A stretch of 62,798 nucleotides of DNA, filler included, from Dugesia japonica (taxonomy: Eukaryota): assembly GCA_001938525.1 (NCBI GenBank). It is 4 parts of 4 records of this genome, joined end to end, with 100 filler letters (N's around TTAATTAATTAA, not from the genome) between each part and the next. Parts side by side here need not be neighbours in the genome. Positions count along the whole stretch, not along the records: positions 1 to 14,846 come from MQRL01642590.1; positions 14,947 to 25,331 come from MQRL01548672.1; positions 25,432 to 52,065 come from MQRL01532797.1; 1 more part is not named here. One strand, 5' to 3'. Positions within the stretch are counted from its first letter, which is position 1. The number at the start of each line of letters is the position of its first letter. Below the pieces are notes generated by a model. It worked only from the letters and a program-made list of their open reading frames with translations, was not told the origin of the DNA and searched no databases. The position numbers and the translations under genes are program-made. Shown one piece after another: positions 5,948-46,299 of the stretch.

Positions 5948-6090
5948 CAATTACAATTATTCCGAGAATAATTGTTGGACGTAACCATTTTTCGTTTTTC
6001 TCAATTCATTAAAAAAAAGCTTCAATCAAAATTTGTTTATTTTAAAAAATAATTCAAAATAATTTTGATCGAAGCTTTTACTTTAAAAAT
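5948..6090. repeat. Foldback family copy A (short palindrome, no hammerhead)
   Basis: Tail CAATTACAATTATTCCGAGAATAATTGTTGGACGTAACC followed by arms AAAAGCTTCAATCAAAATT / AATTTTGATCGAAGCTTTT. Confidence 0.8.
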
Positions 6091-6569
6091 TAAATTGTTA
6101 GAAATTCTAAATAACAATAACTTATAGATTTTATATTCCTGAAAATTGATGGATTATAAATATAATCTATTGTAATTATTAGGCGGAGCCCCTGAGACAA
6201 GGTGGCGTATCACCGGTTAGAAATTATTGCACTAGGTACAAATTAAATTTCATTGCTTCTTTTGGGTTACTAGACCTTTTGATGTTACGACAAATTACTA
6301 TCGTGATTGATGTTTCTTTTCATTATCATGGTTATCTTTTCTGTCTGGAGGATGATACCTAGTAACGACATAAATTTGCTTTGTTTTCGCTAGCAACACG
6401 ATCTACCATTCCCGAGTTCAGCGGGACAATACGGTATCCCGTCTTATGTTTTCAATTTTTTCTTCATCTAGCTCTCGATTCAAGAAAGGTGTTATTCGCT
6501 ATTTATTCATGTTTAAAATAAAAATTCCAAGAAACATTTCGTAAAAAATTTTATTTCTGGTGATAGTTT

Positions 6570-7425
6570 TTATTCATCTATATTGATTATATCATTTGGT
6601 TTATATGTTACGATCTCGTTTTCGGGCTTTAATGCTTGTGCTAAGGTTCGAACTGTTGCTATTATGACGCTCTCTCTATCCGCGTAGATCTTATTGATGT
6701 CGGCTATTGCCTGAGATGTCTGAGACAGTGAGAGGTCACGTTCATGTAACCTGGCATTCTTCTCGTGCAGGGCGGAGTTTTTTCGCTGTAATTCCACTAT
6801 CTCGCTTTGCAATTTTCTCTGGATGGAGCTCCACTTCTTCCTGATGTCCTTGAGTGAGGTATCGGTTAATTTTCTAGGGTTTGACTCTGAAATTATTAAT
6901 GAATGGCATTCCGGTAATGTTAGTATAATGCATTTATATTATCTATCCACTTTATATTATTTTATGAACAATGCAATTAAAAATTAAGTAATATGATTAA
7001 TTACATAAGCCAATTTAAATAATAAAAGATCATAAATATAAAACTATATTATATTTCAATAAAGATGGAATCACACAATATGTTCAATAATATCAGTATA
7101 ATCGAATGATGTAAGCACCTGTTGTAGATAATCGCTCCGATAACTTCGTATATTTTTCTGCTTTCAATTAGGTCGATCTCATTGATTAAATGACATGCTA
7201 CTGGTGATTAGCTAGTTCTGTCGTTCGTATTAGAAGTTTTACAAGCTCTGTTTTTCGTTCTTCTTGATACTGAGTGAACTCGGCTAGTTGCTGATGGTAA
7301 CATTGTTCCTGTTGGTCGACTTTAAGTTCCAAATTCTCAATGGTCTTAAACTTTTGTTGGAGCGCATCTTTCTGATGAGCCATTTGCTTCTTCAAATCAA
7401 TGATTTGTAACTTCTTCTGTCGCAC
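6570..7425 (-). pseudogene. Unknown coiled-coil protein, possibly spliced, inside Polinton remnant
   Basis: Two Q/E/K/L-rich heptad-like ORFs (7198-7425; 6570 to ~6875) separated by an AT-rich spacer with a CCCTAG acceptor on the minus strand; stop overlaps AATAAA. Confidence 0.4.
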
Positions 7426-8433
7426 TTAATCTTGCGTGATCCACCATGGATCTGTATCGCTTCCAAATTTGCCAATAGAATTTAATTTTTCAGGCATGTT
7501 CATACATAGATCTGCTGAGAAGTAACATCCTTAATCTTTCAACAACTTGAAGTCATTGCTTTAGTTAAATACCTGGTCATTTTTGATAATATTTCAATTT
7601 TATTTTGCTAATCATATCTTCTTCAATTAATTTAATCCTTTCAACATTCATATTTCTTAATAATTCAATTTCGGCTTTATTTAACTTCTCATCTATTTTA
7701 AAATTTATTCGCTTGATCAATTGATTTGTCTAATTTCTATTTTAACAATCAATTAATTCATGGATGATTTAATCGTATTTATTCTTTCTGCATTATTTCT
7801 TTTTCGGTTCTGATTTTATTATGTTTTCGTTGTTTTTCAAAGTTTTTTTCTCATGATTTACTCATTTTATTTAGAGCTATCTTTTTCTTACTGGGCTGTT
7901 TCAGCCCAACTAATTACTGGAGGCCCACAAAAAATTAGCACCGGAATTTCTTCAAATTCCTTTGGTTCCGTGCCATTTTATTTCATCATTTATTCTTACT
8001 TGATTTACTTTTTAAACTCGCCTTTCTCGTATGTGGTAGTGATTGAAAAATATTCTATCAGACAAGACTTCTGGTTGGTCATACAGAAAGGTAACTAAAG
8101 AAATAAGCAAATTGTTAACATACTTTTACTATAAATATTTATTAGCAAATTTAACCAATTCAAATGGTCACAAATTACCAAATTATTGTCAGCTGGATCA
8201 CATTTTGCACGAAATTAAAGTCTATAATTAATGTTACTAAATTTCTTACTCAAGAACTCGCATTTTGTCGAAGAGAATTGTCACAGATATGCTCTCGGAC
8301 AACCGCGATATTGGGTTCTGATGGGAAAATTTTGTTGAGTTATAGGATAGCCGAGATTTTGCTACTTGGAAATTGAAATATTTATGATATCAATGCAGAG
8401 CAGCCTGGATTGTATGATCGTAATTTAAACTAT

Positions 8434-9060
8434 TCATGAGTTGGAGATCAGATACATGACTATGGTTTGTCTCGTGTTGAATTTCGAGATTTGAAAGACT
8501 TCATCACTCCAATAATTATTAAAGTTATTAATGAATAGTGTAGTGCCAATTCGAGAAATCCGTACATGTTGACCAATTAAATGTTTTGGTTTTAGTTTTT
8601 TATTGATGAAATACTGTGTATAATCATCAACATCTGTAACATGTTCAGATTTTGTTCCTCCAATACCTCTTTGCTCAAAATGGTTGCATGCATAAATCAT
8701 TTTTGGTAAAACCTGTATCCATTTTTTGTTACTTTGTTTGGTAAAGAACTTGTTTAATTGTGTGCGTAATGTTCGATTAAATCGCTCAACTAGAGCAGCC
8801 CTGTACTGATAAAATACTAAATAGTGCAGTATACTATATAGTTTCAGTAATGATTGAACCTGAATATTGTAAAACTTTTTACCCAAATCGTTTGAATAGC
8901 TTTCGGATGAAAATCTTAGAAAATTGCCCTCAAAGCCAACAACATAATTTTACCAGATTTTTGTTTAACTTGAACTGCACTGGCAAATCTACTTAATACA
9001 TCAACACATGTTAAAATATATCTATAATCATTATTTATGCTTGCATATATAATTAGTCCA
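8434..9060 (-). pseudogene. Polinton retroviral-like (rve) integrase
   Basis: YRYILTCVDVLSRFASAVQVKQKSG, GKKFYN, AALVERFNRTL, KKWIQVLPKMIYACN, IGQHVRIS...NYWSDEVFQI; frameshifted. Confidence 0.85.
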
Positions 9061-9099
9061 TCTAAACCACTTGTCATAGTTTGTTAACTCCGGCAACAA

Positions 9100-9610
9100 T
9101 ATATTTGCGTGTTGGAAACTGTTGGAGATTACTTAAATTATACATAAAGCTGGGAACTCAGGTAACAACTGTCCATAGGATAATCAGATTCCAGGAGACG
9201 GAAATATTTGCTAATTATATCAATGCGAATTCAGCAAGAAGAGCGGTATCACATACAAAATTTGAAAAGGACTTTTATAAATTGTTGAGCAATGCGCTCT
9301 ATGGAAAGACGGTGGCGAATCTGAAGAAAATAATGAATCTTCTGCTACAGTTTTAAGAAAGAAGATGATGATGCATCAACGAAGGCAAAGGGAATCAGTT
9401 TAAAGCAAACTGATATACAACATCAAAATTACTTGTATTCATATAACAATGAAGACGGTGGAGGAGATATAAAAGTTAATCAGACCAGTTTCCGGTCAAT
9501 CAACCATCAATTATTTACGGTGGAAAGAAACGTTCGTTATCATGTCTGGATGACAAACGTTTTTGGATTGAAAAAAGTAAGAGTATGGCCTATGGTCACT
9601 ATGAAATTAA
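9100..9610 (+). pseudogene. pPolB palm (motif B) and C-terminus fragments
   Basis: LKLYIKLG...HRIIRF...FEKDFYKLLSNALYGKTVAN (KxxxNxxYGK), then KAKGI...FRSINHQLFTVE...DDKRFWI...AYGHY. Confidence 0.9.
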
Positions 9611-9989
9611 TAATTAATTAATCAAATGTTAATTAATAAAATAAAAATAATCACTGTTTTATATGAACTGCTGAGCTCAGAATCCAATCCAGAAAAAAAA
9701 TATAACATTGTTGTTGTTATAATTGTGTATATTGAAAAAAATGTTTTTGTCATTTTATTTGTTGTCTTTTATTTATTGATTTTGATATATTTTGAGAAAA
9801 ATATAATATTTGATTTAATGAAAGTTCTTTAATATCTAAAAAAGGAATATGAGTAGAAAAGACTTCTTTTAAATAATATATTAGAATCTTTATTAAATAT
9901 TAAGTGTTTTAAATAATAAAACTTTTAGAGGTAATGATAATAATTATATTATTGATAATTATAATTAGTATTTCTTTTGATAAAAGTTT

Positions 9990-9990
9990 A

Positions 9991-10042
<52 letters not shown>

Positions 10043-10092
10043 NNNNNNNNNNNNNNNNNNNNNNNNNNNNNNNNNNNNNNNNNNNNNNNNNN

Positions 10093-10164
<72 letters not shown>

Positions 10165-10170
10165 TAATAA
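9990..10170. repeat. (AAT)n microsatellite spanning a gap
   Basis: Direct reading; N run inside. Confidence 0.9.
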
Positions 10171-10795
10171 TATTAATAATTTCATATAGATAAAAAAAAC
10201 TATTTGAGGCTCATCATATTATCATGTAAAAATTTTAAAGTTGGGGTGTGAAAGTTCACGCCAAAGGCGCGAAAACTCACCTTTTTCATTAAAGTGTGAA
10301 AGTTCACACCTTAAAAAGTATAATTAAATAATAACAATGAGGTTTTTTTTAATATTCCTACATCAATACAAATGATTAAGATTTGAAAGTTCATGCCAAA
10401 AGTGTAAAAATTCACACCTATAAAAAATTTTTAATAATAATAATAAATTTACACACCGATAAAAAATCATTGTTTACAATTAGGTGTGAAAATTGACGCT
10501 AAAAAAGTGAAAATTAACACATAAAAATATTTTAAATAAGAATAATGTATTTTATAAAGCTCAATGTGTCATGCTTTTAATTTTTAATAAATAAATAATA
10601 AATGAAATATTTTATTGTTAATTAAAACAAAACAAAAAAATAATTTGAGGTCAATTGAGTGTCAATTTATATGTTTATATTAAGGTGTGAAAGTTCACAC
10701 CAAAGGTGTCGATTTCACAGTTTACATTACGGTGTAAAATTTAACACCTCCGATAATGTAAACATCTTGATCTAGAAACCACCTAACCACCTACT

Positions 10796-12316
10796 TTTAT
10801 AACATCTTTTGGATCTATGAAATTGATCTCTTTTAATCCCATTCCAAACGCTTACATTATATCGATATCACCAATAAAATTTGGTCAAATGTCTTTAACA
10901 ATAATTATTTTTTTCTCAATATGCTTTTTATTCAAAAATAATTTAATTCTAGCTTTTCCTATACATTTTTCACTTTTCTCAGAAAATACTCTAGCTAGCA
11001 TTACATTAGATGAACCAATCTTCTTCCAAATTTCCTCACTCATCACTGAGACAAACGATCCAGAATCCTATAAAATCTCTACACTAAATCCATTACACTG
11101 CTCCAATTTTCTACCATCAAGTTTTTAATGCATCAGTTTAACATCAGGTCTCCTATCAATATCTTGATTTTCCTGTTTAAAATTATTTAATGCAACTTCA
11201 CTAGTGAGATGGACACAGCGGGTTGCTGGACATTTTTTTTATTATTTCCTAAGATATTTATTGCATCATGTTCAAAATCAATTACGGAGTCACATTCATT
11301 TAAGGATTCTTCCCTTTCTTGTTCTGCTATTCATAATATTCTTTGGTTATTGTGCCCTTTTTGTAATAATGCATAATTTCTGAAAGCGTGGCCTTCTTTA
11401 CCGCATATTAAACACATATTTTTGAAAGGATAGTTTATTCTTTTATGGTGTGTTTCTTCAAAGCAAAAACAAGCACCATGCTGTAGGAATTCTACTCTTG
11501 GAGGAGCTTTACTATGAGATCTATTATAAATGTTTGTTGCTACATATTTCAGAGAATTCTTTGGAAATTATCTTCTTTGTTCTACATTTATATCTTTTAT
11601 TTGTTGCATATTATTACCAATTCTTGAATCGTTTGTCGGTTTTCTAGATATTGTAGAATATTTTCTTTGTGATGAAAATATTGTCCTCTAATCATTTTCC
11701 AATTTATTAAATTTAGGTTCAAAACTTGATATCTTAACTGCACTTGCAAAGCTTTCGTTGACAACATTTACATTGCTTTTCGTACAAATTTATCAAGATT
11801 TGCAGCCAATTCTCGACGTTTTTCATCATTTAATTCTAGTTTGAGTGCAAAGGATTCTTTAAAATTCTCACTTCTTAAACCATTCAGAATAAAAACTCTT
11901 GATATTTTCTCTGGTGATCTTTTGCTTTCAAATATATCGTGAACAAGCTTTGTTACTCTTATTTCGAAATTCCGATATTTTTCATCAATTCTTTGTTTAA
12001 CTGATGATAGATCTAAAATTTTGTCAACCAGAGATTTTTCATTATTAAATGTTTATTGAAACCAACTTTCGCACGTTTCATTTGAATTGAGATCCTCGTT
12101 TTTGTTCGTTTCTTGCCACAATTCCTTGGCATCGTTCATAATAGCATATCAAATGCAAAAGAAATCCCAATTTGATTAAATATGGCAAATTCCTTAGTGG
12201 TTTGCATCCAATCTTCTGCAGTATCTGATGAACTATCAAAAAATGTATGCTTTGGAATCAGCATTACTTGCGTAGCTTGTGAAAGATTTTTAAAAATATT
12301 TTGTCGATGGTCGCCA
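10796..12316 (-). mobile_element. Ty3/gypsy 5' remnant (PBS, gag, protease)
   Basis: PBS-like TGGCGACC on minus (12309-12316); zinc knuckle CLICGKEGHAFRN (~11380-11415); protease DSGSFVSVMSEEIWKKIG (~11015-11068). Confidence 0.7.
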
Positions 12317-14680: not shown

Positions 14681-14846
14681 AGTAGTAGGATATGAGGACA
14701 CCAGGACAAAGTAGGTCAAAGGGGGGCGAGGGGTCCCCCGTTGCCACGGTAACCGTTGCCATGGCAACCAAGAAGTAGGTTAAGGTGATTGGTTACCATA
14801 AATTGTTTTTAACTTTAATTAATTTCAATTTAAAGAGATTTGACTG
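14681..14846 (+). repeat. GC-rich segment starting AGTAGT, possible Polinton terminus, with two RFX X-box-like palindromes
   Basis: AGTAGTAGG start; GTTGCCACGGTAAC (14740-14753) and GTTGCCATGGCAAC (14755-14768); truncated by a gap. Confidence 0.4.
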
Positions 14847-15438: not shown

Positions 15439-15592
15439 GAATTCATTAAATAAAAGCTTCGAACAAAATTTGTTTTTTTGGTTTTTGATATTATCTTAAC
15501 AAATTTTGATCAAAGCTTTTATTTTAATGAATTCTGAAAAACTATCAATGGTTACGGCCAACAATTATTCTTGCAATAATTGCAATTGTAAA
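15439..15592. repeat. Foldback family copy B (opposite orientation, short palindrome)
   Basis: Arms 15439-15474 / 15498-15534, then the reverse-complement tail ...GGTTACGGCCAACAATTATTCTTGCAATAATTGCAATTGTAA. Confidence 0.8.
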
Positions 15593-18079
15593 AAATAAAT
15601 AAATGAAGTTTAATGAACAATTGCAATACAAAAATTGCAAACATGCATATTTTCAGACACTTACGTCTTGCTGTTTCACAAAATAAATTTCAAAAAACTT
15701 TAGCAGTGAATTTTTTAAGAGAAATAGTACATCGACCAACATTTTAATATTTTTGTTATATCATAAGGTTATTTTTATGATATAGCATCCATCACTTTTA
15801 CTTTTTTTCAAGACTTCCATCTTTATTATAGAAAAAAACCATTAAAAAGGAAAGACATTCGACCATATTTTGAAATATCAGTCTTGCTTTAATTCTCTTG
15901 AAGAGCTTTAACTAATCTTTGACTCGTCCATTGTCAAAAAGTAGGTAAATACTGTAGCACTACTGCACACCTTCTTCCTCCTCACGGGAACAGATACCAA
16001 GTAAGGAACAGAATGTAACATGTTTTCGTGTTGGAAAAATGTATTTTGTTTTAATTATTAAAAAATGTTAAATCAGATCAATTAAAAAAACAATGCTTTT
16101 GTTCTAATCGGATCGGGAACGGTATCCATGCACATGGAAAGTACAGGTGCACAATTTGGTGCCATTTTTATTTTGATGTGCCAAATTTAGTAATCGATAT
16201 TCATGAAAAATCGTTTACATACTCATTGCATTGTGCACTTATTGATTCTCACTATTTTGAAGAGATTATGTTATGAATTGAGGTCAGACCAAAAAACTGT
16301 TTCTACATTGCCTAAAGGACTTTTGTTGAAATATGTTCGGTTCTCAATATAAATGGAACTGGCGCTATAACTTAGCTGATGATGGTAGTAATAATAATTC
16401 GATTGTTGTAAATTTGATGTTGTTAGAATGGGAATGAAATGGTAAATAAGTCTAAGTTATTAAAAAAAAATTTTATCAATGTTTTAATTAATAATTATCA
16501 AAATCGTTATAAAACATTGTATAGAGAAATTTTTACATTACATTATTTATTTTTTGATTTTATCAAAGGTGTGATTAAAAATCATGAATATAATATTTAA
16601 AAGAATGTTTTTTAAAAAATATTTCTTCCCTTAAAAAAGAATTTTAAAAAGAATTTTAAATTTTTTTTAAAACATCTTGTACATCCATCAATTTTAGAAA
16701 ATATAGATTTGAATCCTACACCATTAAAGTTGCAATGAAACACTGAATATTCATTGTCTAAAGGACTAGTAAAGAAAAATGTTTTCCTCCCATCGAAAAG
16801 CATATAAAAACAGATATGTGAAAACATATATGATACTATTGAATATATACTTTTTTGTTTTAATGCGAATTTTGAAAGAATTGATCTATTGTCTGTAACT
16901 ATTATCCGTTTGGGTCAGGTTTGAAATTTTTGGATGCGTAATGAGATGACAGATAATACTGTTATTTATAAAAATAAAAATTATTTTTGCAAATGTTTTT
17001 TTCTATGCATATTCTTTGATCACAGGGTGGCTTCCCGCTCATAAAATACCTAGTTAATTTAAATATATAAACCTTGGTAAATATATTAAACAAGGATTGG
17101 TGATTATGTTTATAAAAAATAAGGTTCTTATAATTTTTTAAGGGATTTGATCACAAATCGTCTTTTGAAAATAGAAGTTTTAAAAGTGAGTGTGCGACCA
17201 ATGAAAATCACTTTAGCTAAAAAATTGTTTTTGGTAGACTTTAGAGTGTAAAAACCATCTTGAAAACTTTTTATTTGCGTACATATTTTAAAGGTTTTCT
17301 TTTTTTCAGGTGTATGTATTAATTTTAAATAGATTTTCTTAATAATACTAAATTATATTGATCAAAATTTTTGCAATCCTCCAGTCAAATAAACATTGTC
17401 TAACTATAGTTTTCAATAAGTTTCAATTAATAATAATATAACTTATATATTTTTAGTATTTATTATGTCGAAATTTGTACTAACAAAACGCAATTTGCGG
17501 GAAGCAAATATTTGTAATTATATATAATCTTAATAATAAACCCCCAATTCACTCACTAACTCACTCTGGAACACATCAGTGAAACAAAATGTTCTAAATC
17601 TTAAGCTTATGTTGGGCTGGAACAGCCACAAATTTACAAGAAGTAGAAAGCAACAATTGCGTGAAAGAATTAAATAAAGATCTTGAAAATCAAATGTTCA
17701 AACAAATTTAGTGCATTAATGATAATAATCGAAAGAATCCATAAGAAAATATTAACAAAATTGTTTAGAAATAATTAATAAAATATTACTCAGGGATAAA
17801 AGAAAAAAAGATATATTCAATTGGAAATTAACAAGAACTAAGGAAATAAAATAAAACAGAGAAATTTATAAATTAAATACTGATACCGAAAAAAAGGAAA
17901 AGAAATAAAATAATAAAGTACAACGCACATGATGGATTATTAATCAAACGAATTAATTAAAATAGATTTAAACATGAAATACCAACAAAATTCACATAAT
18001 TTAATAAAAAAATTGAAAAGAGAATTAAAATAAAAACGTTGAAATGGAAAACTGGGCCGAAATAATATAACAGATTAGT

Positions 18080-28080: not shown

Positions 28081-28139
28081 CTCTGATGAAATAAATAGAA
28101 AAATAAGTACTTTCTTTTTTTTGAATATCTGAAACAAAA

Positions 28140-28275
28140 AGAAAGTGAAGTCTTCAAACACTTTCATCGCAAACATAAAATTTCACCAGAACAACATCAC
28201 TTAACATGGAAAAACACTAGGTACAGGCTACATTTCTACACTTCATAGAAAAAAACATGAAGAATTACTAATTAA
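28140..28275. repeat. Interspersed repeat (inverted copies at ~38460-38550 and ~45390-45530)
   Basis: Shared core CTGTTCCTAATGTTTTCCATGT..TATGATGTT...GTGAAA. Confidence 0.7.
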
Positions 28276-29665
28276 AGTAGTAGTAGTGGTAGTAGTAGAT
28301 GTAGTAGTAATAGTAGTAGTATTATAATTATAATTACGATGCTTTAATATCCAACATCAAACTTTTATGAAAGGTTTTATAAATTTCTTAAATAGTTTTA
28401 TACATTTAATTATTTATTTATTTGAGTTTCAAATTGATAATAACTATAATTATAAGATAGTTATATAATATTCTACGTTCGTAGTTATCCAAAATGTCAT
28501 CTAATGGTAATATATACAAGCGTAATGGAAACATAAAATATTTACTTATTAGATTTATGAACAGATTCTACCTTTCAAATTCTTATTGAGCTTAAGTCAA
28601 CTAATACATAATTAACAATAAGAATTTAGGTTTTTGATAAAATAAAAATGGTTTTAATTTTAACTAATTAAAATAGATTTTATACTATTTTAATATATCT
28701 TAAATTAACAACTGTTTTTCTACTTTTCCAAAACTAAAATTGTTAGGAGAGTTTGGAAAACTCCTCGAATCATTAAATCATTAATCATTTCAATTCCATA
28801 AAATTTATTTCAAATACAAACTATATCCATCATTATTCGTTCAAACAAACAAATTAAAACTCAATGCTCTAATCGGCAATTATTTTTCAAAAATTTAAAA
28901 ATTTAGATTTCAATTAATTTGATAATTTTACAGAAAATAATTATTTTTTAATAACGCATCATTGTAAAATTTTCATAAACTTTTTAAACAAAAATAAATG
29001 ATGATTTGTTTTAACATATAATTTAAAAATTTTTACAAAATTTTAAAACCAAAAAAAACTGATTATTTGTTAAAAAAAATTTCATAAAATTTCAAAACAA
29101 AAAATGATCATTTGTAATATCTTTTAAAATTTTCACAAAACTTTCATAAAATTTTCAAAAAATCACTTGTTATTAAATTATCATTTTAAAATCTTCCGAA
29201 CTTTCAAAACAAAATTGACATTTCCAAAAATTTTAATTTATTTTAATTTCTTAATTAATTTATGATTTTGAATCTTTTTTTAAAAAAGATTTTTTTTAAA
29301 ACATAATCTCCAACCAGAGCACCAAAAATTTTAATTCTCTTCTAAACTATTCACAAAAATAATTAATTTTTGATATTTCTAGATACATATTTGATAGTAA
29401 GTCTAAATTCACATGTTCGATAAATGTAAAATTATTTTGTTTCAATGATCATTTAACCAAATATACGATTGTAGTTTTAATTATTAATCTTTCATGGGAA
29501 TATATTTTTTGGAAACATCTTGCAGTCGGGATTATAAATCAATTTTGATTGATTTTTACTGAATTTTATTACAGGAAATCCTTTAAAAACAAGTAAAAAT
29601 CTGCCAAATTCGTATTTTAGTTTCAAAAATATTAATTCATGTAAAAGATAAACGAACAAAGATTT

Positions 29666-29667
<2 letters not shown>

Positions 29668-31312: not shown

Positions 31313-31350
<38 letters not shown>

Positions 31351-33948: not shown

Positions 33949-34706
33949 GGGGCCATCCATAAAGTATGTCACGCTATTTTTTACAATTTTTACCCCCCCC
34001 TCCGTTGTCACATTCTGTCACAAATCTCTGATCGCCTCTGAAAGTACGTCACATTCTGGAACTAAAAAATTATTATAAAAATTAACTACTTATTACAACT
34101 AAATCTAAAACACACTTCACTATTAAACTGTATTAAATTTATAAAATTACAATTATTGCGTCGTTTTTCAGAATTCATTAAAATAAAAATAAAAGCTTTG
34201 ATCAAAAGTTTTTGTTTTGTTTTTGATAATAATTCTAATTTTTTGACTTTGTCTTCGTCAGGAATTAACTTTTTTGATTTATTCAAAATTTATGTATTTA
34301 ATGGAAATATTTTTTTGAATTGATTTCAGTAAATTAAATTAATTCAAAAAAATATTTCCATTAAAAACATAAATCTAGAATAAATCAAAAAAGCCCATTC
34401 CTGACGAAGACAAATTTGAAAATTAGAGTTATTATCAAAACCAAAAAAAAATGTTGATTGAAGCTTGTATTTTTATTTTAATAACTTTATAAAATTTTAA
34501 CTTTAACTTTAACTTAATTGAGATTTAAAATTCCATATAGTGTCATAATTACTAAACGCTAGTGACATTCTGTTAGAAAACGTCAATCACAACAGAAAGT
34601 TAAACATCACTGTCAATTTCAGGGTTTTATATGTATGATAAAAAATAAAAATTTGTAACATCACACATAATCTTTAACCTCCCTCTCCTATTTTATGGAT
34701 GGCTCC
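33949..34706. mobile_element. Second copy of the Harbinger MITE (inverted) with a nested ~440-bp insertion
   Basis: GGGGCCATCCATAAAGTATGTCACGCT ... TATGGATGGCTCC; TTT flanks; colinear with the reverse complement of 32454-32800 except 34114-34552. Confidence 0.8.
34144..34480. repeat. Foldback family copy C (long palindrome with two degenerate hammerhead motifs)
   Basis: Arms of ~140 bp centred near 34330. Plus strand CATTC-CTGACGA-AGACAAATTT-GAAA-ATTA-GAGTT (34396-34430); minus strand AATTC-CTGACGA-AGACAAAGTC-AAAA-AATTA-GAATT (34231-34266). Confidence 0.8.
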
Positions 34707-34719
34707 TTTTCAGGGAACT

Positions 34720-35060
34720 GGTATGGGTGTCTTTGTCCATCATAACCGGTCTGGTTGGCATTAAATTCCGAAGTTCTGCGATATTACTTGCTTGGTTTCT
34801 CGTCCAGCCGACTGAAGCAGAAACTCTAAAAACAGTAGTTTGGACCTTCCAGATTCTCTCCTGCCCAGTTGCAAGTTCTACTTGCTGTCTATAATCATAA
34901 CAGCTTTTCTTGTATAGTTTAATTCGGGAATTGGCGTTTACTGTCTCTACCGTTCATTGTTTTACACCCAGTCTCTATAATTCCCAGAAAATCTTGATAT
35001 TGACACTGTTCTATTTAATTTATGGGAGCTACAGAGTTCTTTCGATATTGAACCACTGAA
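34720..35060 (-). mobile_element. Possible non-LTR retrotransposon (RLE-type) 3' remnant
   Basis: Weak resemblance: NIKIFWE recalls the KILWD motif preceding restriction-like endonuclease domains; heavily disrupted. Confidence 0.25.
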
Positions 35061-35702
35061 AAGATTATTCTTTGTACAGATAACATTGAAAACAATTATT
35101 AATGACAAATTAACAGTTGAAAACATTATTACTTTCATAACAAATAAATAAATTAATCAAGGGTCAAAAACGGCAACGATTATTTATTAAGAATTACAAT
35201 ACTAGATGTTATTGGATAATTTATAAGGAATTTCATCTATATAATATGTCACCGGATTTTGAGGTTCCGGGATTCTGAGGTTCTGAAATTTTTATTGGAT
35301 ATTTTTAATAATATAGTATATTTAATAATATATTTATAATAATTTACAATATTTATAATATATTTACAATAATATATTTAACTAACGAATGATTTTTTGC
35401 CTTAAAGTTATTGTTCAAGCATTATTTTATAAAAAAAATTGTATAAAAGGGGGGCATAAGTCCCTGACACAGAATTATAGGGGCGGCCAAATAAATGTCA
35501 ATTTATTTTGAAAAAAATCATAATATTTAGAAAGATAAGCAAAAAGTGGTTATGGACTGGTAAAGTCAAATCGTATATCTTTTCACAGCTTTCTCTCAAT
35601 AATAATAAATTACAATTGATTCTATATGTCGAAAGTGTAATTATAAAGACAAATTTCTATAGTTTAATTTAGTTGAAAGTTCCCGAGTACACAAAACCCT
35701 TA

Positions 35703-36385
35703 TTCTCTGAATCAATTCTCTCGCTTCGTCGGCAGTAAATCGGAAAAAAATCCAAAACCTATCGACATGTCTTGTATAAAGTCTGATTGGATGAGCAGTT
35801 TGCGCATTAACATCTTCAAACTGACAAAATGAAATTGGTTCATTCGGTGGACCAGCCATATCTGTTGCTCTTGACAAACCCAACACCAATAAATCGAGAA
35901 CAAGACCGTAATATTGGGTAATAAATGAAGCGAATTGTAATCCTCTGATAATTCCAAAAGAATGAGTATGCTGCATATCTTTAAACGATATTCTGACGTT
36001 ATTTTTCGCTGACATAATCGGCAATGTTGTGATCCATAATTAAACGTAATAAACGTAAAGATTTTCTCAAAAATAGTTTCTAAGTGTACATTGCATTCGC
36101 CATCTGCAGTAACCCAGACATTCTCGAGATTGTTAATTTCTTGGCCCTATTTGTAAACCAATTGCGGTGGTGGTTCTTTATCACTAGGCTTGATCCAGGC
36201 TGGAAATAGATTTCTCTTCTCAGATTTGTACCAACAGTACTGGTCAAAATAAGCATCTGTAATTTTCTCCAACGCATCGATCTCATACACTGGAACAATA
36301 TGACTGTAAAGATCCATAAACTCGATTTTTTCTACCTCTTCGAAATTCCTCAAAGTTAACAAATGTCTTTTAATTCTGTTCAATA
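35703..36385 (-). pseudogene. PRPF8: PRP8 (spliceosomal U5 protein) intronless pseudogene fragment
   Basis: RIKRHLLT...EFMDLYSH...[11 protein letters not shown]...[19 protein letters not shown]...GECNV...[14 protein letters not shown]...[29 protein letters not shown]...HPIRLY.R..DR...[15 protein letters not shown]; TAG in place of Trp, a deletion and frameshifts. Confidence 0.92.
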
Positions 36386-37275
36386 AAATCTTAAAACTAA
36401 CTGATTTCACTGCTACTTTTATAAGGTTTAGAACCACACCATCCATATTCTTATCGGTTAAACATTTAAAATTTGATTTTACTGGTTTCTATTGGTTTTC
36501 GCATTATGTGAACTTTTCTCATTGGTATTTCTCTTTTTGTATTTCTCTTGATCGTAAAGTTTTTTGGTGGTTCTCCCTTTTTAGCTAATCTTTACTTTAC
36601 CTATGTCAAAGGTGTTAAATCTTCTTTTTGAGTTAACTGGTTTTAAATAATTCTGTATTTCCTAGTTTATTTTACTGCAGATTTTTCCGGCGTTTGGTTG
36701 AAAACAAAGCCCAATTAATGTTTTTAATTAATGATCAATTATAATTTTGGATTTAAAATAAATTATTTTATTTATTTTTCTATTAATTGAGGTTTTTATT
36801 ATTTTCTCTGATTCTGAATTATTTCTAATTTCAATTTAATAAAACTTAATTTATTGATTTTTAAAAAATCTAAATTACAATAATTTTAATGGGTTTATTA
36901 TTTTTAGGAATTTAACCTTAATTAGCTACCTATTTTCTTTTTCTAGTGTAATTTTGATGTTTGTATAAAGGTTTTTTAATTACTAAATGCTTTACCCAAA
37001 CAGATTTATAAATCTTCATTTTTAAATGAAGTGAAAACTAATAGTTTCTTTATGAACCATAATCTCGTCTTCAGTAATATTATAGTAAATGCATACAGGG
37101 CCGGTCCCAACAAAAGCGGGTACGGTGCAAAGTTACCTCACTGGCCTTGAAATAAATTTCATACAAAAAATAATAATCGTTATTTTAGTTTTACTATATA
37201 CATATACATATTAATATTACACCAAAAAAACTTTTATTAATATAATTATGTTTTAAATTATTATAAAGTTATTTA

Positions 37276-37420
37276 TTTACAATTACAATTATTGCGAGAA
37301 TAATTCTTGAACTTAACAATTGATCGCATTTGAAATTTCATTGAAATAATAGTTTCGATCAAATTGTTGTTTTGTAGATATTCGAATTTTCAACTATTGT
37401 CTTCTTCCAGAATATAACTT
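37276..37420. repeat. Foldback family copy D (single arm, degenerate hammerhead on minus)
   Basis: Tail TTACAATTACAATTATTGCGAGAATAATT; minus strand ATATTC-TGGAAGA-AGACAATAGTT-GAAA-ATTC-GAATAT (37378-37415). Confidence 0.7.
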
Positions 37421-38969
37421 TTTGCAGATTTAATTGATATTAGAAAATTTTTCATAATTTTTTGTATTTTATTAAACTTTTGATCATTTTAATCAAAATT
37501 AAATTAAATTAAAATTTAGATTTTATTTTAAATTTAATTTTAAAAATCTAATTTAATTGAAATTTTTAAATGTTTTATTAAATTGTATTTTTATTTTAAA
37601 AATTTTCAAAATTTTTCGATTTATAGAAGTTTATTTTAATTATAATTATCATAAACTACATTAATTTATTCAATTAAAAAAAGAAAAAATATATATATTT
37701 GTATTATTAAATATTATATTTTTTTATTATTTTTAACATTATTTAAAATTTTTAATTATTTATGTGTATGTTTATGTTTATGTTTATGTTTATGTTTCAT
37801 GTTTTATGTTTTATTTATGTTTTTATAAATGTTTAATGTTTTATTTATGTTTTTATTTTATGTTTTATTTATTTTTTTATAAATGTTTAATGTTTTTTTT
37901 ATGTTTTCATTTTATGTTTTATTTATGCTATAATTAATGTGAATATAAGTATAAATTACATTAATTTTTTTAAAATTAAATTTAAAAACTTTTAAAAAAC
38001 TTTTAAAAATAAATTTAATTTATTTATGTTTATTTTAATTACTATTGTAAGAGCAATTCATAGATAATGCATATTTTACGGAATTTTTTAATTTAAATAT
38101 TGTGGTATATATTATATAGTATTATATTAAAATTAATTCTTGAAATATTTTTAAAAATTATTTAGAATATTTTATATTAAAAAAAGTAAATTAGAGATTT
38201 TAGAAATGAAGACATTTTTTGTCGAATTTTTTTTTGAAAATTTATTTTGGTTTAAATATTTTATATATTGTATTGTAAAAAAATTATTTGGAATAAAAAT
38301 ATCTTTTAAATTATGGTAGTAATGTTTTGTGAAATATTTATAGTAAGAAAAATATTACCGATTTTTTTACTACTTTAAAAAAATTGGTAATATTTATTAT
38401 AATAAGGATAATTAGTATAAACTACATTGATTTCAGGTTTATTTTCTTTCATCAATATTTCTTAATGTTTCTTCTATGAAGTGTATAAATGCAGCCCTGT
38501 TCCTAATGTTTTCCATGTAATATGATGTTTTTCTAGTGAAAGTGTTTAAAGTGTTAATGCGTCGTAATATGTGGAAAATCAGGCAAACGTTCACTGAGTA
38601 GTCATCCATTTTATTTTCTTGCTAATATCATTGTTTTCATATTTGATGATTTTTTTGTTACTAATAAAAGTTTATTAAAAAGTGTAAATGAAATTACGGT
38701 TGAAAGAATTTCTCATTTTGAAAAGAAATGATGTTTTGGCCTGTGTATAAAATATAAAGAAAATGAATGGAGTAGATCAATAAATTTTATATAAACAAAT
38801 GAAACTTTTCTTAGAAATTTAAAATAACAGAAAATGTTTTGTTACTTTATTATTTAGTCTTTCTCTGCAATTTCTTTTATTTTTCAAAAGCATTTATTAT
38901 ATTGTCATTTAAAATTTTGTTTGAAATATTAATTTCATTATATAAAATTTAGATATTATATAATTTTAG

Positions 38970-39083
38970 ATATTGCGTCGACATCTTGGATTCTTCCCTT
39001 AGTCATATCATTAATTGTTATTGTGATTATTGTAGTGATGATACTGTACTTCTGCCTACGTGGTTCCGGTGAAACATACAATG
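38970..39083 (+). CDS. L1CAM/neuroglian-family receptor, transmembrane exon
   Basis: AG/GT bounded; IASTSWILPLVISLIVIVIIVVMILYFCLRGSGETYN; phase-compatible with the downstream exons. Confidence 0.85.
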
Positions 39084-39421
39084 GTGAGAATAATAGTTAT
39101 TTATTTAAACATTTATTTGTTTATTTAAACACTACAATAATGATTAAACTCTTAATTAGCCATTTATGGTAACTTGGTTTCCATTAATTATTTATTCTAA
39201 CAAATTATTCTTTATTTTTTAATCTTAAGTTTTATGTAAATTTTAATTATAATTATTTGTATTGAATTTTCTAATAATAAAAATTATAAATGGATTTTTA
39301 TTTCATATTAATTTTATTTTCGAAATAAAAACATCTTAAAATAACAAGACGTCAATTTATAAGATTTTTTTATATCTTTAGCCGAAATTTTTTTGATCTA
39401 TATGCATAAAATATTGTTTTG

Positions 39422-39475
39422 AAATTACAATTATTGCGAGAATAATTGTTGGACGTAACAATTGATCGTTTTTTA
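39422..39475. repeat. Foldback family copy E (tail only)
   Basis: AATTACAATTATTGCGAGAATAATTGTTGGACGTAACAATTGATCGTTTTT. Confidence 0.75.
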
Positions 39476-40499
39476 TGTTCCTTATGCCAGACTCCCAAAT
39501 TAAGTACATGATTTCCTATATAACTTTTTATCTATAAGGTTTGACGATTTTAGGTTTACATATTCTTACTCTCCGTAAAGTCCTCTATCGAATAGATACT
39601 TTAATGTTCAAATTTGAGTTACTTTTATTTTTTCCGAAAAAAATTGCCAAATCCGTTAGGAAACATTTTGGTGAGACGATATTTTAACTTTATCCAGTCA
39701 CTTTTTCATCCTGAGTTCAATGAGGCCAAATATGTAATTATACAAGTTATCTGCAAACAGAGAATTGAGCGCTAAATACTGAAATTGGAGATTTTTCGAG
39801 ATAAAACCTCATCTATTTTAACCGATCTAAAGTTTGGTGATTTTAGGTTAACATATTTAGACTCAGCGAAAAATTGTCTATCGAATAGAACCTTTGTTGA
39901 CCAATTTTGAGAAGAAAATAAACGTTTTGGAACAATTCTGTAAAATACTCGAAAAAACCAAAAATGATCCCCGTAAAATTCTGAATAGATTGATGTAAAA
40001 ATATCCATGTTAAAAAATTGAAAAAATTATTTTTGAAAATTTTGGATGTTCACCCGGATTTCATAAAAAATTTGATAGAAAAAATTTTTAATTTTCATAT
40101 TATTTAAAAACATGGACTGTTAACCCGTATTTCCGTAAAAAATCTCATAAATTTTTTTTCCCAACTAAAAACATAAGAAAAATTCTATACCACTTAATCC
40201 GATTACATAAAATCTCGACGATGAGATTAATCTAATTACATAATTTATGTGCAAAATATTTTTCCCAACTAAAAATATAAGAAAAATTCTATACCACTTA
40301 ATCTGATTACCTAATATGATGTTATTTTTAAATTCCCAACTAAAACACAGGGATTATGTTTCATTATATCACGAATCCAGCGGGGATTCGCACACAAAGT
40401 AGTACAGCGCGCTAATATCCCGCTACTAATTTTACAAACAGTCTTGGTTCAGGTCTCAAATGAAATCGAAAATTGAGACTCGTCATAAGAAGCCTATGA

Positions 40500-41008
40500 G
40501 AATTTAAGGGTGTTCTGTTCCTGTCAAGGAACCGAATATTCAATTTGGAAATGTACTGTCAATAATTGAATAGTTTGAACGAATCTATCATCCAGAAACG
40601 CCCAGAGCTTGTTAATCGTAAAGGAGTTTTATTGCATCACGACAATGTGAAACCAAATACAAGTTTAATCACCTATCGAAAAATATTGGAGCTTGGATGG
40701 TATGTACTGCCACACCCATCATACTCAAGTGATCTTGTACCGTCAGACTTTCATTTATTTCGCTCTCTTCAAAACTCCTTGTGTCGTGTAACGTTCAATT
40801 CAGACGGGGCTATAAATCAGTGCCTTATTCAGTTTTTTGCCAATAAAAATAAGTCCTTCTGTCATCGAGAAATTATGAATCTCTCTGAAAGATANNNNNN
40901 NNNNNNNNNNNNNNNNNAACAATATATTATTGATTTATATAAATTTATTTAAATAAATATATTCTTTTAAAAACAGAAAAATGCGTCATGACTTTTCGAC
41001 AACTTAAT
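40500..41008 (+). mobile_element. Mariner transposase C-terminal (DD34D-type) remnant with 3' TIR-like end
   Basis: LLHHDNVKP...LELGWYVLPHPSYSSDLVPSDFHLFRSLQNSL; end ...CATGACTTTTCGACAACTTAATA. Confidence 0.88.
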
Positions 41009-41212
41009 AATAGTAATCTCATCATGGTCCCCCTGTAACTGCTTCGTAGTCTTTTATATGACCACGGACCTCAGTTTGAAAACGACTGTATTAGATAATG
41101 AAATGAAATTTATAAACAAATTTTTAAAATAAATAATTGAGTTCAATGAATTCAATCTTAAGACATTTATGCTTTCAGTTTAAATTGCAATTCAATTTTC
41201 TTATATTTTCAG

Positions 41213-41294
41213 TTGACCAAAAAGAAAGGGCTCATGGTCATGATCCAGAAAAAGAAATACGAGATAATGAAATTTTTCAACCCTATGAACGGGA
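41213..41294 (+). CDS. L1CAM/neuroglian-family receptor, cytoplasmic exon
   Basis: AG/GT bounded; (V)DQKERAHGHDPEKEIRDNEIFQPYER, like the L1-family YxVxEKE...DPE...FxEY segment; phases 1/2 consistent. Confidence 0.85.
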
Positions 41295-43845
41295 GTAAGC
41301 AGCTTAATCTGATTTTTAATTATTTTTTATGTATAATGGTAACATTAATACTTCAGCATTTCTGGTAAATTTGTAATTAAATATTTTCGATTTGTATCTG
41401 TATGTACCATTTCAATTGATGTTAATAAAAAATATAATTAATCATAGTTTTTATATTAATTGTTATTTTATTATTTATAGTGTCATGTATAAGATATTTT
41501 TAAGTTTTCATTAAAAAACGTCTAAACGTTTCCTAATGCTTTCTAATTGAAGTCATTTTATATTTTTCACAATTTTGTATTAATTTAATTTAATTTAAAT
41601 TGTCCGCCAATAATTAATGAATTTAAACCAAACAATTCAATTTGCCCACCAATTAATTGTAATACAATAAAAAACAGTTAATTCGTTTTACCCGTATAAA
41701 ATAATGTCATATTACTAAAATAAATTTTTTCTATCTGTCGGTGAGGCTTTTTTCGAATGTAGAATTTCGCGATAACCGATCATATAGCTATTAATGCTGC
41801 ACTTTCTTTTCTGTCTATCTGTATGGCTAATTTTCCTATCGATTATTACTACTTACAATGAAAATAATTGGTAAGTAGCTAAATAATTAGTCGAACGTGA
41901 CACTTACATACCACAAGAAGCAATAAATTACTCAATGCTCGATTAAAACCAACACACGTATACGGTGAGAAAAGCGTATTTTTCAATAATTTGATTGCCA
42001 CTGATGAAAATCCATGCACTCTGATTGGTTAATAATGAACCATACACACATACACAGTTAGCCGGTAAAGTTTATGAATAAACTAGATTGCAAGAATGGA
42101 AAACCAAAAACATTTCTACTCCCGGGAAGGGTTAGGTACTTTTAACTTACTCTGAACCAAAATTTTGTTTGATTGAAAATCCTTTTGAATATTACGTTTT
42201 ATTAATTAAATATTGTCGATAGTTTCAGTAAAAAGAAGTTTTTATAAAGTTATAACTTTTTTATTTAAAAACTTAAATTTATTTTCTTACAATCTTTTGA
42301 ACGAAAAGACCATGAAAAGTATTTCAAATCAGGAGTCTCAATTAAGACTATTGAGGTGGCGGCCCTAATTTTCATCTGATATATAAATTAATAAAATAAT
42401 AATACAAAGGATGCAAGATCAATGGTACACAAAAGATTAACGACTATTTTATTGATTTAAAGATAATATTTAGATTTTACCGATGTTTTGTTGGTATATT
42501 TATTGGTAAAGTTTTATCAAAATAATATTGAAGTTTTTTTCAGAAAATTATTAAATGGAATGTATTTCAGCTTCTTGAAATTTATTGTTCAAATGTATTT
42601 TGTTATGGAAACTAAAACAAAGATCATATCAAAATAACCATTTTTAGTAAATGATCCGTTGAAAAACAAAACTATTTTTTTAATGGTGCTTGATAACCGT
42701 CAAAGATTTAATATTATCAAACTACCTATGATATAAAGTATAGATGCATATTTTTAAAATAACTTTACTTTTGTTTAAATATTGTTTTGATTGTTTTTTT
42801 AGATTGGAATTATTGAATAGATTTTTTAATAGAATTTAAGACTTATGATTTAACTGTCGATTCATCACAGCTGAACCCAATTACTCATAGCCAGGGAACC
42901 AAAGCAAACGGAATTTATGAAGCTTTGTCTAAGGAGTCCATAGAATTATTAACCCCTAAAATTACGAAAGTTTTTGGAAAATATGATGACGATCGAACAA
43001 AATAGCCTAGTGAAATTAAAATCTTTGCAGAATCAAATAATGTTGATTTTTTCTCAACTTTTAATTTTCTAATAGATGGTTACGCAAAAGATCTGTGGCT
43101 AGCATTTAAGAGTTGGCAGAATGTCTTCGATAAAATGGCTAAATTTTTAAACGAAAGATTTCTCCGAATTATTGAAAAATATCGTGGAATTCGACAAAAA
43201 GAAAATTAAGTTTTTGAAAACTTCGAATTAAGATTTTTGAGATCGATCAAAGAAATATTTGAATCAGGATTGAATGTGGGTGAAAATGTTTTGCAAATCA
43301 TCAAGGAAAGAGTTAGTTTCGAAGATCTAAAAAAGATATTTGCTTTCAAACCAGAAATGAATCTAGATGAAATGCGGTAAGTGGTTGAAATTTTTTAGAA
43401 AAATGTAGAAACTTTTGTGGGTCACAAATAAATAATGATTTACTCAGAAGTGGCAGCTAGAAATTACAGACCAAGAATTAAGAAGACTGGTTTAAAAGTA
43501 TTCAAATACTATAAATCCAGGTATAATGAAACAGACGAGAAATTTCTGAAGAAATCAACGATTCCGAAAACATCAAAAAAGGTCATTTTAGAAACATGCC
43601 AACAGTTTCCATGAAATTTAATGTGAAGAAATTGTAAAATAAATCAGAAAGACTCCCTTCTCCAAGTGAAGAACAATTAAAAAGGCCTATGTTTTTGCTG
43701 CAAAATCATGGGCTTCTTAACTGCTGGCTTAAATCTTGTTTTACAATTACAATTATTGTGAGAATGATTGTTATACGTAACCATTGATCGTTTTTCAAAA
43801 TTCATTTAAAATCGATCAAAATTTGCTATTTTGGTTTATGATAAC

Positions 43846-43880
43846 AATTCTATTTTTCGACTTTGTCTTCGTCAGGAATG
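43846..43880 (-). ncRNA. Minimal type-I hammerhead ribozyme motif
   Basis: CATTC-CTGACGA-A-GAC AAA GTC-GAAA-AA-TA-GAATT: catalytic core CUGAnGA/GAAA/UH, 3-bp stem II, stem I ATTC/GAAT. Confidence 0.65.
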
Positions 43881-43901
43881 GACTTTTTAATTTCAAAAGT
43901 C

Positions 43902-43936
43902 AATTCCTGATGAAGACAAAGTCGAAATATAGAATT
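43902..43936 (+). ncRNA. Minimal type-I hammerhead ribozyme motif
   Basis: AATTC-CTGATGA-A-GAC AAA GTC-GAAA-TA-TA-GAATT; stem I AATTC/GAATT perfectly paired; predicted cleavage after A43931. Confidence 0.72.
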
Positions 43937-46299
43937 ATTTTCAAAAATCAGAAAAAATATTTTGATCGAAGCTTTTATTTTAAACGAATTTTAAATCTTG
44001 TTGTTTAATTTGTGTTTAATTCAAAATTTTAATGTTTAATTTGTGTTAAAGCTTCAGAAACTACCAATTACTCGAAAATTATCAATAATTAACAATTATT
44101 AGAAGAAGCTTACAGTAAGGAAAAGAGAGACGAAGATTGAAAGATGATCAACAATGACGTGAGCTTTTTAAATTTAAGAGACTCCATTGCTTTAATTTCA
44201 TCGATTGAGTCAATGCAATGAAAACTGAAAATCGGAATTTTGCTTCTAATTGTGATATGTATTAGACGAAAGTTTGAAGAATTTGGAGCATAGTCAAAGT
44301 AAAATAGTAAATGATCGAAATCTTGTAGGACACGGGTGCTTCAATATCAGTGATGGAAAGAGTGTGGATATTTTTCACTAGATAGATTCATTATTAAGTT
44401 AAGTGATACATTTTCAAAAGAATTGAAATCGGTAATGTGAAAAGAATAATATATATTGTGATTGTGTATGGAATAAATTCAGAATTTATTGGTGAGATAG
44501 ATATGTTTAATGCNTTTAATATTCAATTAAAAAGACTTAATAGATTAGATTCAGGAAATATTCACAGTAAATTCACTGATGAAGATCGCTTTAAAGCATG
44601 ATTACCAGCTTTTAAACCGAAAGATAATTTCAAATAAATGTTTCTAGAATTGTCAAAGCAATTTACGACAGATACTTTTAATCTTGTAAAAACGCATGTT
44701 GTAAAACATTTCATGTCAACAGTTGAGGATACTATTATAGACAAAATTCGATGTCAAATATATATGAATTGATTGAGCAACTAATTGAAAGCGATATTAT
44801 CGATGAATGCAGAAGTCCTTGGAATTTTCTAATGGTAATTATTGGTTAAAAGAATGGTGCGATTAGATTGTGCCAAGACTTTAGAATAAGAAATTATTTT
44901 ACAAATAAGTTTTCATTCCTCCTGCCAGATCCACAAACCTTGTTTGATTACCTTTATGTACTATCTTTTCAACATTGGTTGCGAGACAAGTTTATTATCA
45001 AGTAGAATTAAACGAAAAAGATATATTTAAAATGGCATTTTCAATAAAGAAGGAACAATATTCCTATAACCGCATACTATTAGGGTTATCTACTGCTCCA
45101 GCTTCATTTCATACAGTTTTGGATGGGATTTTATTTTGAGGTGTAGTTTTATATATTAATGACATTTTAATATTCCCAAAAAGTCGATCAGAAAAAAATT
45201 AAATACTTGAAATTTTATTAAATCATTAAATTATTATATATAATAATAATATGCAAATGGACTTTTAATTTATTCAATATTTAATGTTTAAAATAGAAAT
45301 ATATTTGAAATTAATTTTATTTCATTGAATTTTAATTGGTTAATTTATTTAATTATTGTAAATTACATTAATTTTAGGTTTATGTTTTTGAATTAGTAAT
45401 TCTTCATGTTTTTTTCTGTGAAGTGTAGAAATATAGTCTGTTCCTAATGTTTTCCATGTTATATGATGTTGTTCTGGTGAAATTTTATGTTTGTGTTGAA
45501 AGTATTTGAAAACTTCACTTTCTTTTTGCTTGAGGTATTCCTTAATTCTTGTTCGATTCTTTTCGTTTAATCACAAGAGATTTATTTTTTTTATTCGTTT
45601 ATTATACAGAGTGGTTTGGAAAAATCGCAATGTAAATAGGCGATGAGTAAAATTTATGTGCGATCACAATTAATTACAGTGTTTGTTTTAGCCCCATCAA
45701 AAATTTTGTTATTATTATTATTAATATATTATTTTATGATATCATATTTTATATAATATAACTTTATTATATTTTATTTTATATTAATATATTATTATTA
45801 ATATATTATTATTAATATATTATTATTAATATATTACTATTAATATATTATTAATAATATAATAAAATAAATATAATAAAGAGAATTATTTAACTTTTAA
45901 TGAAGTTCATTAAAATTATCGCCAGAATAGGAGACAAAGTTTTACCCATTTCCAGACCACCTTTTTGTTTAAAAGGTTGTTCACTGATAAAAATGCTATC
46001 AGAGACAAGGCATGTGTAGTTTTCAATTGCCTACTCAATAGTATCAAATTCAAGTCTTGGTGATAAAAATTTAAGGCGGGGTGCGGTTTTTAAACTTTAA
46101 AATTTCAAATCTTTAATAACTCTTGACTAACATATCAGATTGATATTTTGAGGAAGCAGTTATGGTCATCAAGCTTTTACGAGTCCAACGATAAGAAGTT
46201 TGTCATCATAGCATGTATCTAATCGTTTTAATTGTAATTTTAAAATTGATGTATTTCATGTTGGCTGATGTGCCATTATCTTCCTACTCTCATGTCTAT

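Follow-up and report, generated by a model that had tools for sequence, protein, structure and literature searches.

How does a dispersed repeat family come to carry the same tail on one side only, next to palindromic arms whose length differs from copy to copy? The question is raised by a stretch of 62,798 nucleotides from Dugesia japonica (assembly GCA_001938525.1), called the window at its full length, in which a first-pass annotation had described six such copies. The repeats are almost certainly the ends of a Penelope-like element (PLE), of an architecture that is already known, and the hairpins are short head-to-head insertions of the pseudo-long terminal repeat (pLTR) of an endonuclease-bearing PLE. 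Their outer ends are fixed and paired and their target site duplications (TSDs) vary in length; there are two inner stop sites, either arm can be the longer one, and a stop followed by A is found on either arm. These insertions probably arose by twin-primed run-off, in which both nicked target strands prime cDNA at two internal sites of the RNA and the cDNAs run off the RNA 5' end and are joined.

Copies in the window

The copies in the window are lettered A to F; handles beginning with L denote loci of the assembly, and P0001 is a relative protein of 843 aa. Reference (ref) positions count from the tail end inwards along a constructed reference, in which the tail spans 1–60, the inner fixed end lies at ~62, the predicted ribozyme cut falls at 117/118 and the 5' strand of stem I at ~143–148.

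When the whole window was searched by blast, a 60-nt tail query matched all six copies (E 8e-22 to 7e-4) and had no match in 20 of 20 shuffled windows. Six copies with a common one-sided tail thus stand, roughly at the positions first given. Palindromes extend beyond the tail in A, B, C and F, as had been claimed, and none was found within 1.5 kb of D and E. The arm lengths of about 20, 36, 140 and 90 nt had to be corrected to ~32–36 nt for A, 50 nt (tail-less) vs ~36 nt (tailed) for B, ~150 nt for C and ~95–100 nt for F. Copy D, formerly taken for an armless stub, belongs to a body piece of 1.27 kb, of which it forms the 3' end and which extends to the C-terminus of a GIY-YIG endonuclease at 38417–38533, and a copy extending into a PLE open reading frame (ORF) is thereby at hand.

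5933..5943, left TSD of copy A, 11 bp, identical to 6086–6096
5944..6085, minus strand, copy A: tail, tailed arm to ~ref 96–117, tail-less inverted arm of ~32–36 nt
6086..6096, right TSD of copy A, matching the left TSD
15441..15593, plus strand, copy B: tail on the right, tail-less arm reaching ref 110–120 and tailed arm reaching ref 92–97
34134..34148, left TSD of copy C, 14/15 identical to 34482–34496
34149..34481, minus strand, copy C: tail partly deleted, arms to ~ref 207 and 215, degenerate hammerheads in both
34482..34496, right TSD of copy C, matching the left TSD in 14/15
37275..38541, minus strand, copy D: 5'-truncated body with GIY-YIG C-terminus, long AT-rich 3' untranslated region (UTR), pLTR and tail
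38417..38533, minus strand, broken GIY-YIG endonuclease C-terminus of copy D, 56% to P0001 residues 803–841 (tblastn)
39413..39475, minus strand, copy E: tail only, ending near the inner start site
43729..43740, left TSD of copy F, 12 bp, exact with 43991–44002; the last 2–5 nt could be tail
43739..43990, minus strand, copy F: tail, then arms that extend to ~ref 155 and 160 and meet at the upstream stop site
43739..43800, minus strand, tail of copy F, ~60 nt between two fixed outer ends; the minus strand holds the first ORF codons
43991..44002, right TSD of copy F, matching the left TSD

TSDs, whose existence the first-pass annotation had left as a question, are exact in A (11 bp) and F (12 bp) and match in 14/15 positions in C; the TSD of B is ambiguous and none was seen for E. 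An empty site paralogous to that of copy C, in L372, holds the 15-mer once. The hammerhead core is absent from copy A, and for copy B the excess of the tail-less over the tailed arm is weakly supported (6.5 bits).

The tail is the start of a coding region

The family is abundant in the 854 Mb assembly: the 28-mer arm end has 3,643 exact matches, a first look returned 3,792 candidates for copy F, and two tail variants gave 99 and 115 exact matches, with 0 for reversed-pattern controls. In non-palindromic copies, tail and arm are followed by an AT-rich UTR and this in turn by a GIY-YIG C-terminus, a cysteine linker and reverse transcriptase (RT) motifs. A frame of 295 aa in L115 spans an RT motif to the endonuclease, and 15 longer relatives were found with it; the best of them, P0001, has 72% identity, with RVT_1 at the cut-off and GIY-YIG just under it. 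No intact copy of the element was found in this assembly, and Pfam returned just one match, GIY-YIG below the cut-off, for six genomic ORF fragments (1/6).

At 32 loci, some of them duplicates, the tail reads through into the ORF and matches P0001 from residue 2. Because the tail continues into the ORF and is coding, it marks where the coding region begins and lies within the RNA; it is not the fixed RNA 3' end for which it had been taken. The pLTR is found on both sides of the ORF as a partial tandem, L317 and L319 running from the endonuclease through pLTR and tail to the ORF start. With this link to the ORF, a TSD of variable length and no two-tailed palindrome among 70, the inverted pLTR plus tail structure of PLEs that the first-pass annotation proposed is upheld, as is its view that the family consists of no ordinary miniature inverted-repeat transposable elements (MITEs).

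Two further pieces of the family lie in the window; the first is without a pLTR and had been overlooked.

45254..46012, minus strand, additional body fragment: RT piece, GIY-YIG end and 3' UTR, ending at ~ref 144–153
28123..28280, plus strand, additional GIY-YIG fragment (blast/tblastn)

The cysteine linker reads C-x3-C-x-C-x5-C, and the endonuclease has CxxC and two His in a spacing unlike the canonical Neptune/Nematis motif. Linker and CCHH-type residues point to a putative Neptune/Nematis kind of PLE. DKT and CxCX5C are shared with the Hydra clade, which is described as having a DKT motif and a CxCX5C linker and as lacking CCHH (PMC8557442). Here DKT and CxCX5C are present but so is the CxxC of the CCHH motif; P0001, L103 and L115 all show the Hydra-clade marks alongside an intact endonuclease CxxC.

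A second subfamily (L061, L066, L071, L087, L112) has an AT-rich 3' UTR of 0.7–1.1 kb between endonuclease and pLTR, compared with ~110 nt in the main subfamily. Long inverted junctions within the RT region occur at L105:2450–4028 and L107:2450–4002, where the head-to-head structure is thus also seen at kilobase scale. An RT fragment at 62352–62696 of the window belongs to a second, distant PLE-like family (34% to P0001).

One tail per insertion

The tail sample comprised 90 of the 99 and 90 of the 115 tail matches. Of these 180 loci, 73 were clean palindromes and 49 had a single arm; 5 were duplicates, 38 were interrupted by a gap or contig end, 13 had too short a flank and 2 ran into the ORF. 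At least three more palindromes (L156, L222, L291) were below the arm threshold and sit in the class without a second arm. Arm statistics refer to n = 71, with L043, whose second arm is doubtful, and L183, which has an insertion in its tail, excluded.

An exact TSD of at least 8 bp was present in 36 of the 70 palindromes with flanks; in 40 shuffled pairings the number averaged 2.8 and never exceeded 6. Exact TSDs were 7–14 bp long, without a single mode. None of the 70 tail-anchored palindromes had two tails. Thirty loci anchored in the arm instead of the tail had a tail at 13 of 25 evaluable ends, and all eight palindromes with both ends readable had exactly one. Because there is exactly one tail per palindrome, the two outer ends are coupled; in the element ~60 nt separate them, and the tail belongs to one of the two. 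A tail at both ends together with a fixed-length TSD, which the first-pass annotation had named as the sign of a conventional MITE, was not found, and the same holds for the identical termini and fixed-length TSD of a Mutator-type foldback.

A hammerhead motif in the arms

The pLTR arm carries a minimal type I hammerhead, for which a descriptor gave 110 matches; 89 of them pair in stem II and 77 in stem I, and 100 have a palindromic helix III. Helix III reads ATAT in 86 and AATT in 14, a double change that preserves the palindrome. The cut was placed by the hammerhead consensus; in the tail-less arm of copy F it is predicted between 43931 and 43932.

43846..43880, minus strand, minimal type I hammerhead in the tailed arm of copy F (descriptor); helix III no longer palindromic
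43902..43936, plus strand, minimal type I hammerhead in the tail-less arm of copy F (descriptor); the centroid fold shows stems I and II

An Rfam scan of 34000–44200 returned no hammerhead family and 8 sub-threshold matches, to miRNA hairpins. In three folds the stability of the tail hairpin relative to shuffles was z = 0.79, 0.88 and -1.79, by which a selected structure is unsupported.

Arm reach and inner stop sites

Arm reach was taken from a joint alignment, and one arm was called longer at >10 bits. The tail-less arm was longer in 21 of the 71 palindromes and the tailed arm in 8, with 42 symmetric or unresolved; among simulated fold-backs 0 of 60 were called longer on the tail-less side. 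Seven of the 21 keep an exact TSD of at least 9 bp. In L237 the tail-less arm reaches into the endonuclease ORF and the tailed arm ends at ref 115. Minority alleles were common to both arms in 87 of 151 cases vs 18.5% (maximum 36.6%) in 1,000 shuffles, which indicates that both arms come mostly from one template lineage. Global arm-to-arm identity was too noisy for this purpose (own arm nearest in 8/32) and the allele-sharing test was used in its place.

The ends of the longer arm are concentrated at two positions: 30 of 71 lie at ref 149–162 (equal flanking windows 8 and 4) and 12 at ref 112–122 (flanking windows 5 and 2). Patterns for head-to-head junctions, applied to the whole genome, matched 375 times at the upstream site, 63 times near the cut and not once at ref ~180–190; the counts are not strict ratios, the patterns being unequal in composition and subfamily coverage. 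Read-through copies, too, often begin at ref 149–158 (~10/32). Palindrome centre and truncation, variable in the first-pass annotation, are neither free nor random genome-wide: the centres cluster at two sites, just upstream of the ribozyme and at its predicted cut. A poly(A) end of the RNA at ref ~153 with a template jump at a T run was considered and found unsupported: among 55 endonuclease-anchored loci, 42 of which were not evaluable owing to a divergent UTR, the sole such end was the fragment in the window.

For the cut site, 40 of the 63 junctions were taken, giving 80 arms (L353 and L355 may be one locus). The last base lies opposite the predicted scissile bond in 26 arms, at +1 in 1, at +2 in none and further on in 9; the remaining 44 end one to four bases short of the predicted cut. 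The next base is A after 25 of the 26 exact stops (at least 3 A in 18), compared with 1 of 58 run-through arms that have A there. Five exact stops have just 0–1 A, and for this reason the stop is independent of the A run. Exact stops are found in 11 of 34 tailed and 10 of 34 tail-less arms, and in 7 of those 10 the tailed arm is the shorter one. The number of arms that end at precisely this base suggests that the ribozyme is cleaved in vivo.

The tailed arm ends at ref 47–76, close to the inner start site, in 10 of 71 palindromes (L172, L206, L299, L178, L047, L199, L159, L045, L203, L268), as if its synthesis had been halted on a shared template at the point from which the second cDNA starts. 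In L343 and L346 one arm ends at the predicted ribozyme cut and the other passes it by 3–7 nt, a hint that two differently processed RNA templates were possibly used in one insertion.

RNA reads

Four raw RNA runs were mapped to L317:1355–1830. In the three deeper runs the read depth steps ~9–16 fold at the upstream stop, and another step is seen at the tail end. Twelve of 14 listed opposite-strand joints have one side at 1407–1411 of L317 and one joint lies at the cut. Molecule starts showed no pile-up at either stop in the four runs over this interval. Because the reads lie in both orientations and 93–99% of them continue into unlike sequence, they confirm the ends of other genomic copies within host transcripts, not a start site or cleavage.

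Twin-primed run-off as the probable mechanism, and its alternatives

In twin-primed run-off, the endonuclease would cut both target strands with a stagger, and cDNA synthesis would begin at the tail end on one strand and at the inner site on the other. The two cDNAs would then run off a 5' end of the RNA, which would be either the hammerhead cut or an upstream end lying ~8 nt ahead of hammerhead stem I. The cDNA ends would receive untemplated As and may be joined via microhomology or short templated patches, with subsequent fill-in. Mini hairpins would result from initiation in the 5' pLTR copy, and the longer, ORF-bearing truncated copies such as D from initiation in a 3' copy. The upstream stop is likely the transcript start, which is the weakest step of the mechanism; transcription starts of PLEs lie in the pLTR (PMC6765202, PMC8557442).

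Several observations weigh against this reading. Long palindromes are under-assembled, a gap or contig end interrupting 38 of the 180 loci, and one of 35 scorable junction loci, L342, is a borderline case of two tails. The copies are old, their own arms being ~83% identical, so that deletion after insertion can have shortened either arm, and breakage of the hairpin tip could also yield the 17 of 29 asymmetric copies that keep one arm at the upstream stop. The 42 near-symmetric palindromes are also predicted by fold-back. The cut-site cluster is modest in the tail-anchored sample (12 vs 5 and 2) and lacks significance when the tailed arms are taken by themselves (10 vs 7 and 8); AATT palindromes flank the cut site, and templated patches at junctions (L340, L367) indicate that some A runs may be slippage products. 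The two orientations of the RNA reads and their continuation into unlike sequence belong here as well. For the Poseidon element of Anolis carolinensis in vitro, PMC11167929 reports start sites without strand preference, cleavage that is dispensable and no RNA-seq reads beginning at the cut; strict one-tail coupling is unexplained by that assay.

An alternative, in the same PLE, is that cDNA begun at the tail end self-primes and folds back, the endonuclease resolves the product at the inner site, and the asymmetry reflects later deletion. Both components have been put forward, self-priming in PMC3846280 and endonuclease-mediated tail resolution in PMC8557442. The strict one-tail coupling would follow naturally, and the near-symmetric palindromes and the template variants that the arms have in common agree with it. 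Fold-back of a tailed cDNA, which the first-pass annotation had favoured, cannot give a longer tail-less arm, and it is disfavoured by the 21 palindromes in which this arm is the longer, by the seven of them with exact TSDs of at least 9 bp and by L237. Nor can fold-back yield a tail-less arm that stops at the cut and has an A addition of its own; this stop is as frequent on tail-less as on tailed arms, the tailed arm being the shorter in 7 of 10, and the tail is not an RNA 3' end. We therefore consider fold-back unlikely.

It is very improbable, and largely refuted, that the hairpin is a non-autonomous unit copied whole, as a palindromic mini-element or retrozyme-like unit moved by the PLE enzyme. 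The high copy number and the usual size of 250–276 bp among F-like matches are in its favour, and PLE-derived non-autonomous retrozymes have been reported (10.64898/2026.07.22.740005). Junction sequences, however, differ from copy to copy (71 junctions, and 50 listed at each genome-wide site), repeats being mostly apparent duplicate contigs, and because of this the hairpin is not copied as a unit; the usual size is accounted for by the common stop, and the retrozymes described there are arranged in tandem instead of head to head. A DNA element with asymmetric ends, whether a Helentron/HINE, which the one-sided 55–60 nt extension with its small hairpin resembles (in HINEs 38–60 bp separate the 3' subTIR from the terminus, PMC4067079), or a foldback of the Mutator type with a TSD of 9 bp, has a negligible probability and is refuted by the continuity with the RT and GIY-YIG ORF, the extension being coding, the arms of 25–300 nt bearing hammerhead motifs, the TSDs varying from 7 to 14 bp and the tail hairpin being no more stable than shuffles in 2 of 3 folds, in place of the 12–15 bp subTIRs, TT insertion and Rep/Helicase-partner ends of Helentrons and HINEs.

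Other features of the window

The first-pass annotation had placed copies inside a Polinton, a Harbinger MITE and a gypsy remnant. Nesting stands for C, which lies in an element of ~760 bp with terminal inverted repeats (TIRs) and many copies, a putative Harbinger element.

33949..34706, TIR-bounded repeat hosting copy C, 18 bp TIR, 16/18 matching

Containment of A in a Polinton and of F in a gypsy remnant was not borne out. None of 42 matches spans both flanks of A, and remnants of Polinton-type protein-primed PolB (pPolB) and integrase lie 2.3–3.5 kb from it; degenerate integrase-like and pPolB pieces of this type occupy 8434–9621. A gypsy-type RT remnant begins ~770 bp to the right of F, and gypsy-type RT, RNase H and integrase remnants are found at 44760–45175 and 49868–52060.

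On the minus strand at 35641–36488, ~800 bp past the tail of copy D, there are broken and frameshifted pieces of the Prp8 splicing factor (Pfam RRM_4, E 4e-30), possibly a decayed copy. A perfect AT-rich palindrome at 4531–4649, with arms of 58 bp and a loop of 3 nt, is by blast unrelated to the PLE family. Inverted repeats of ~380 bp at 1407–1785 and 3279–3657, 92–97% complementary, surround ~1.5 kb and represent a foldback or long-TIR element. The frame at 40566–40952, which had no Pfam match, resembles by eye a mariner transposase C-terminus.

Relation to known systems and significance

In LINE-1 twin priming both target strands prime cDNA and the inversion junction shows microhomology, a likeness to the insertions described here. 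The second L1 primer lies upstream on the same RNA and the pieces do not overlap, whereas here the same short RNA stretch is copied from fixed sites.

PLEs with an endonuclease are known to have an inverted pLTR, a one-sided tail overlapping the ORF start and a TSD of 8–10 bp, for which self-priming was proposed (PMC3846280). Pen2a_Av of Adineta vaga (PMC3846280; overview in PMC8557442) resembles the planarian element in its head-to-head pLTR, its tail at one end over the ORF N-terminus, its TSD of ~8–10 bp and its AT-rich targets. In contrast to Pen2a_Av, the tail measures ~60 nt instead of 30–40, most copies here are two pLTR pieces alone, and with thousands of copies the inner ends could be assigned to two sites. 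Poseidon of Anolis carolinensis cuts and extends both strands in vitro from two internal sites that bound the tail, with a hammerhead just upstream, and is alike in these respects (PMC11167929). The two starts of the planarian element, unlike those of Poseidon, are strictly paired, one per insertion, and its arms stop at the predicted ribozyme cut; it also has a cysteine linker, which Penelope/Poseidon are without. Its helix II, at 3 bp, differs from the minimal type I hammerheads of PLE pLTRs in PMC4209133, a paper from which evidence for cleavage in vivo is absent.

A literature search, thin on subscription journals, found no published mapping of PLE junctions to a ribozyme cut and no argument for twin priming from genomic copies. 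The insertion mechanism of PLEs is called undefined in PMC8557442, and the formation of their inverted ends and tail as well as hammerhead cutting in vivo are stated open questions (PMC8557442, PMC4209133, PMC11167929). Thousands of mini insertions turn both questions into counts. The arm stops name the RNA ends to seek, and twin priming can be told from fold-back by the stop with A on either arm. In annotation, hairpins of this type are to be read as PLE ends, not as MITEs or miRNA precursors. On balance, and with little more than even confidence, we regard the junctions as a base-precise fossil record of germ-line PLE insertion, according to which the hammerhead would cut the RNA in vivo, the cut RNA would serve as template, and an asymmetric pair of reverse transcriptases would begin at two internal starts, run off the same 5' end and add untemplated As.

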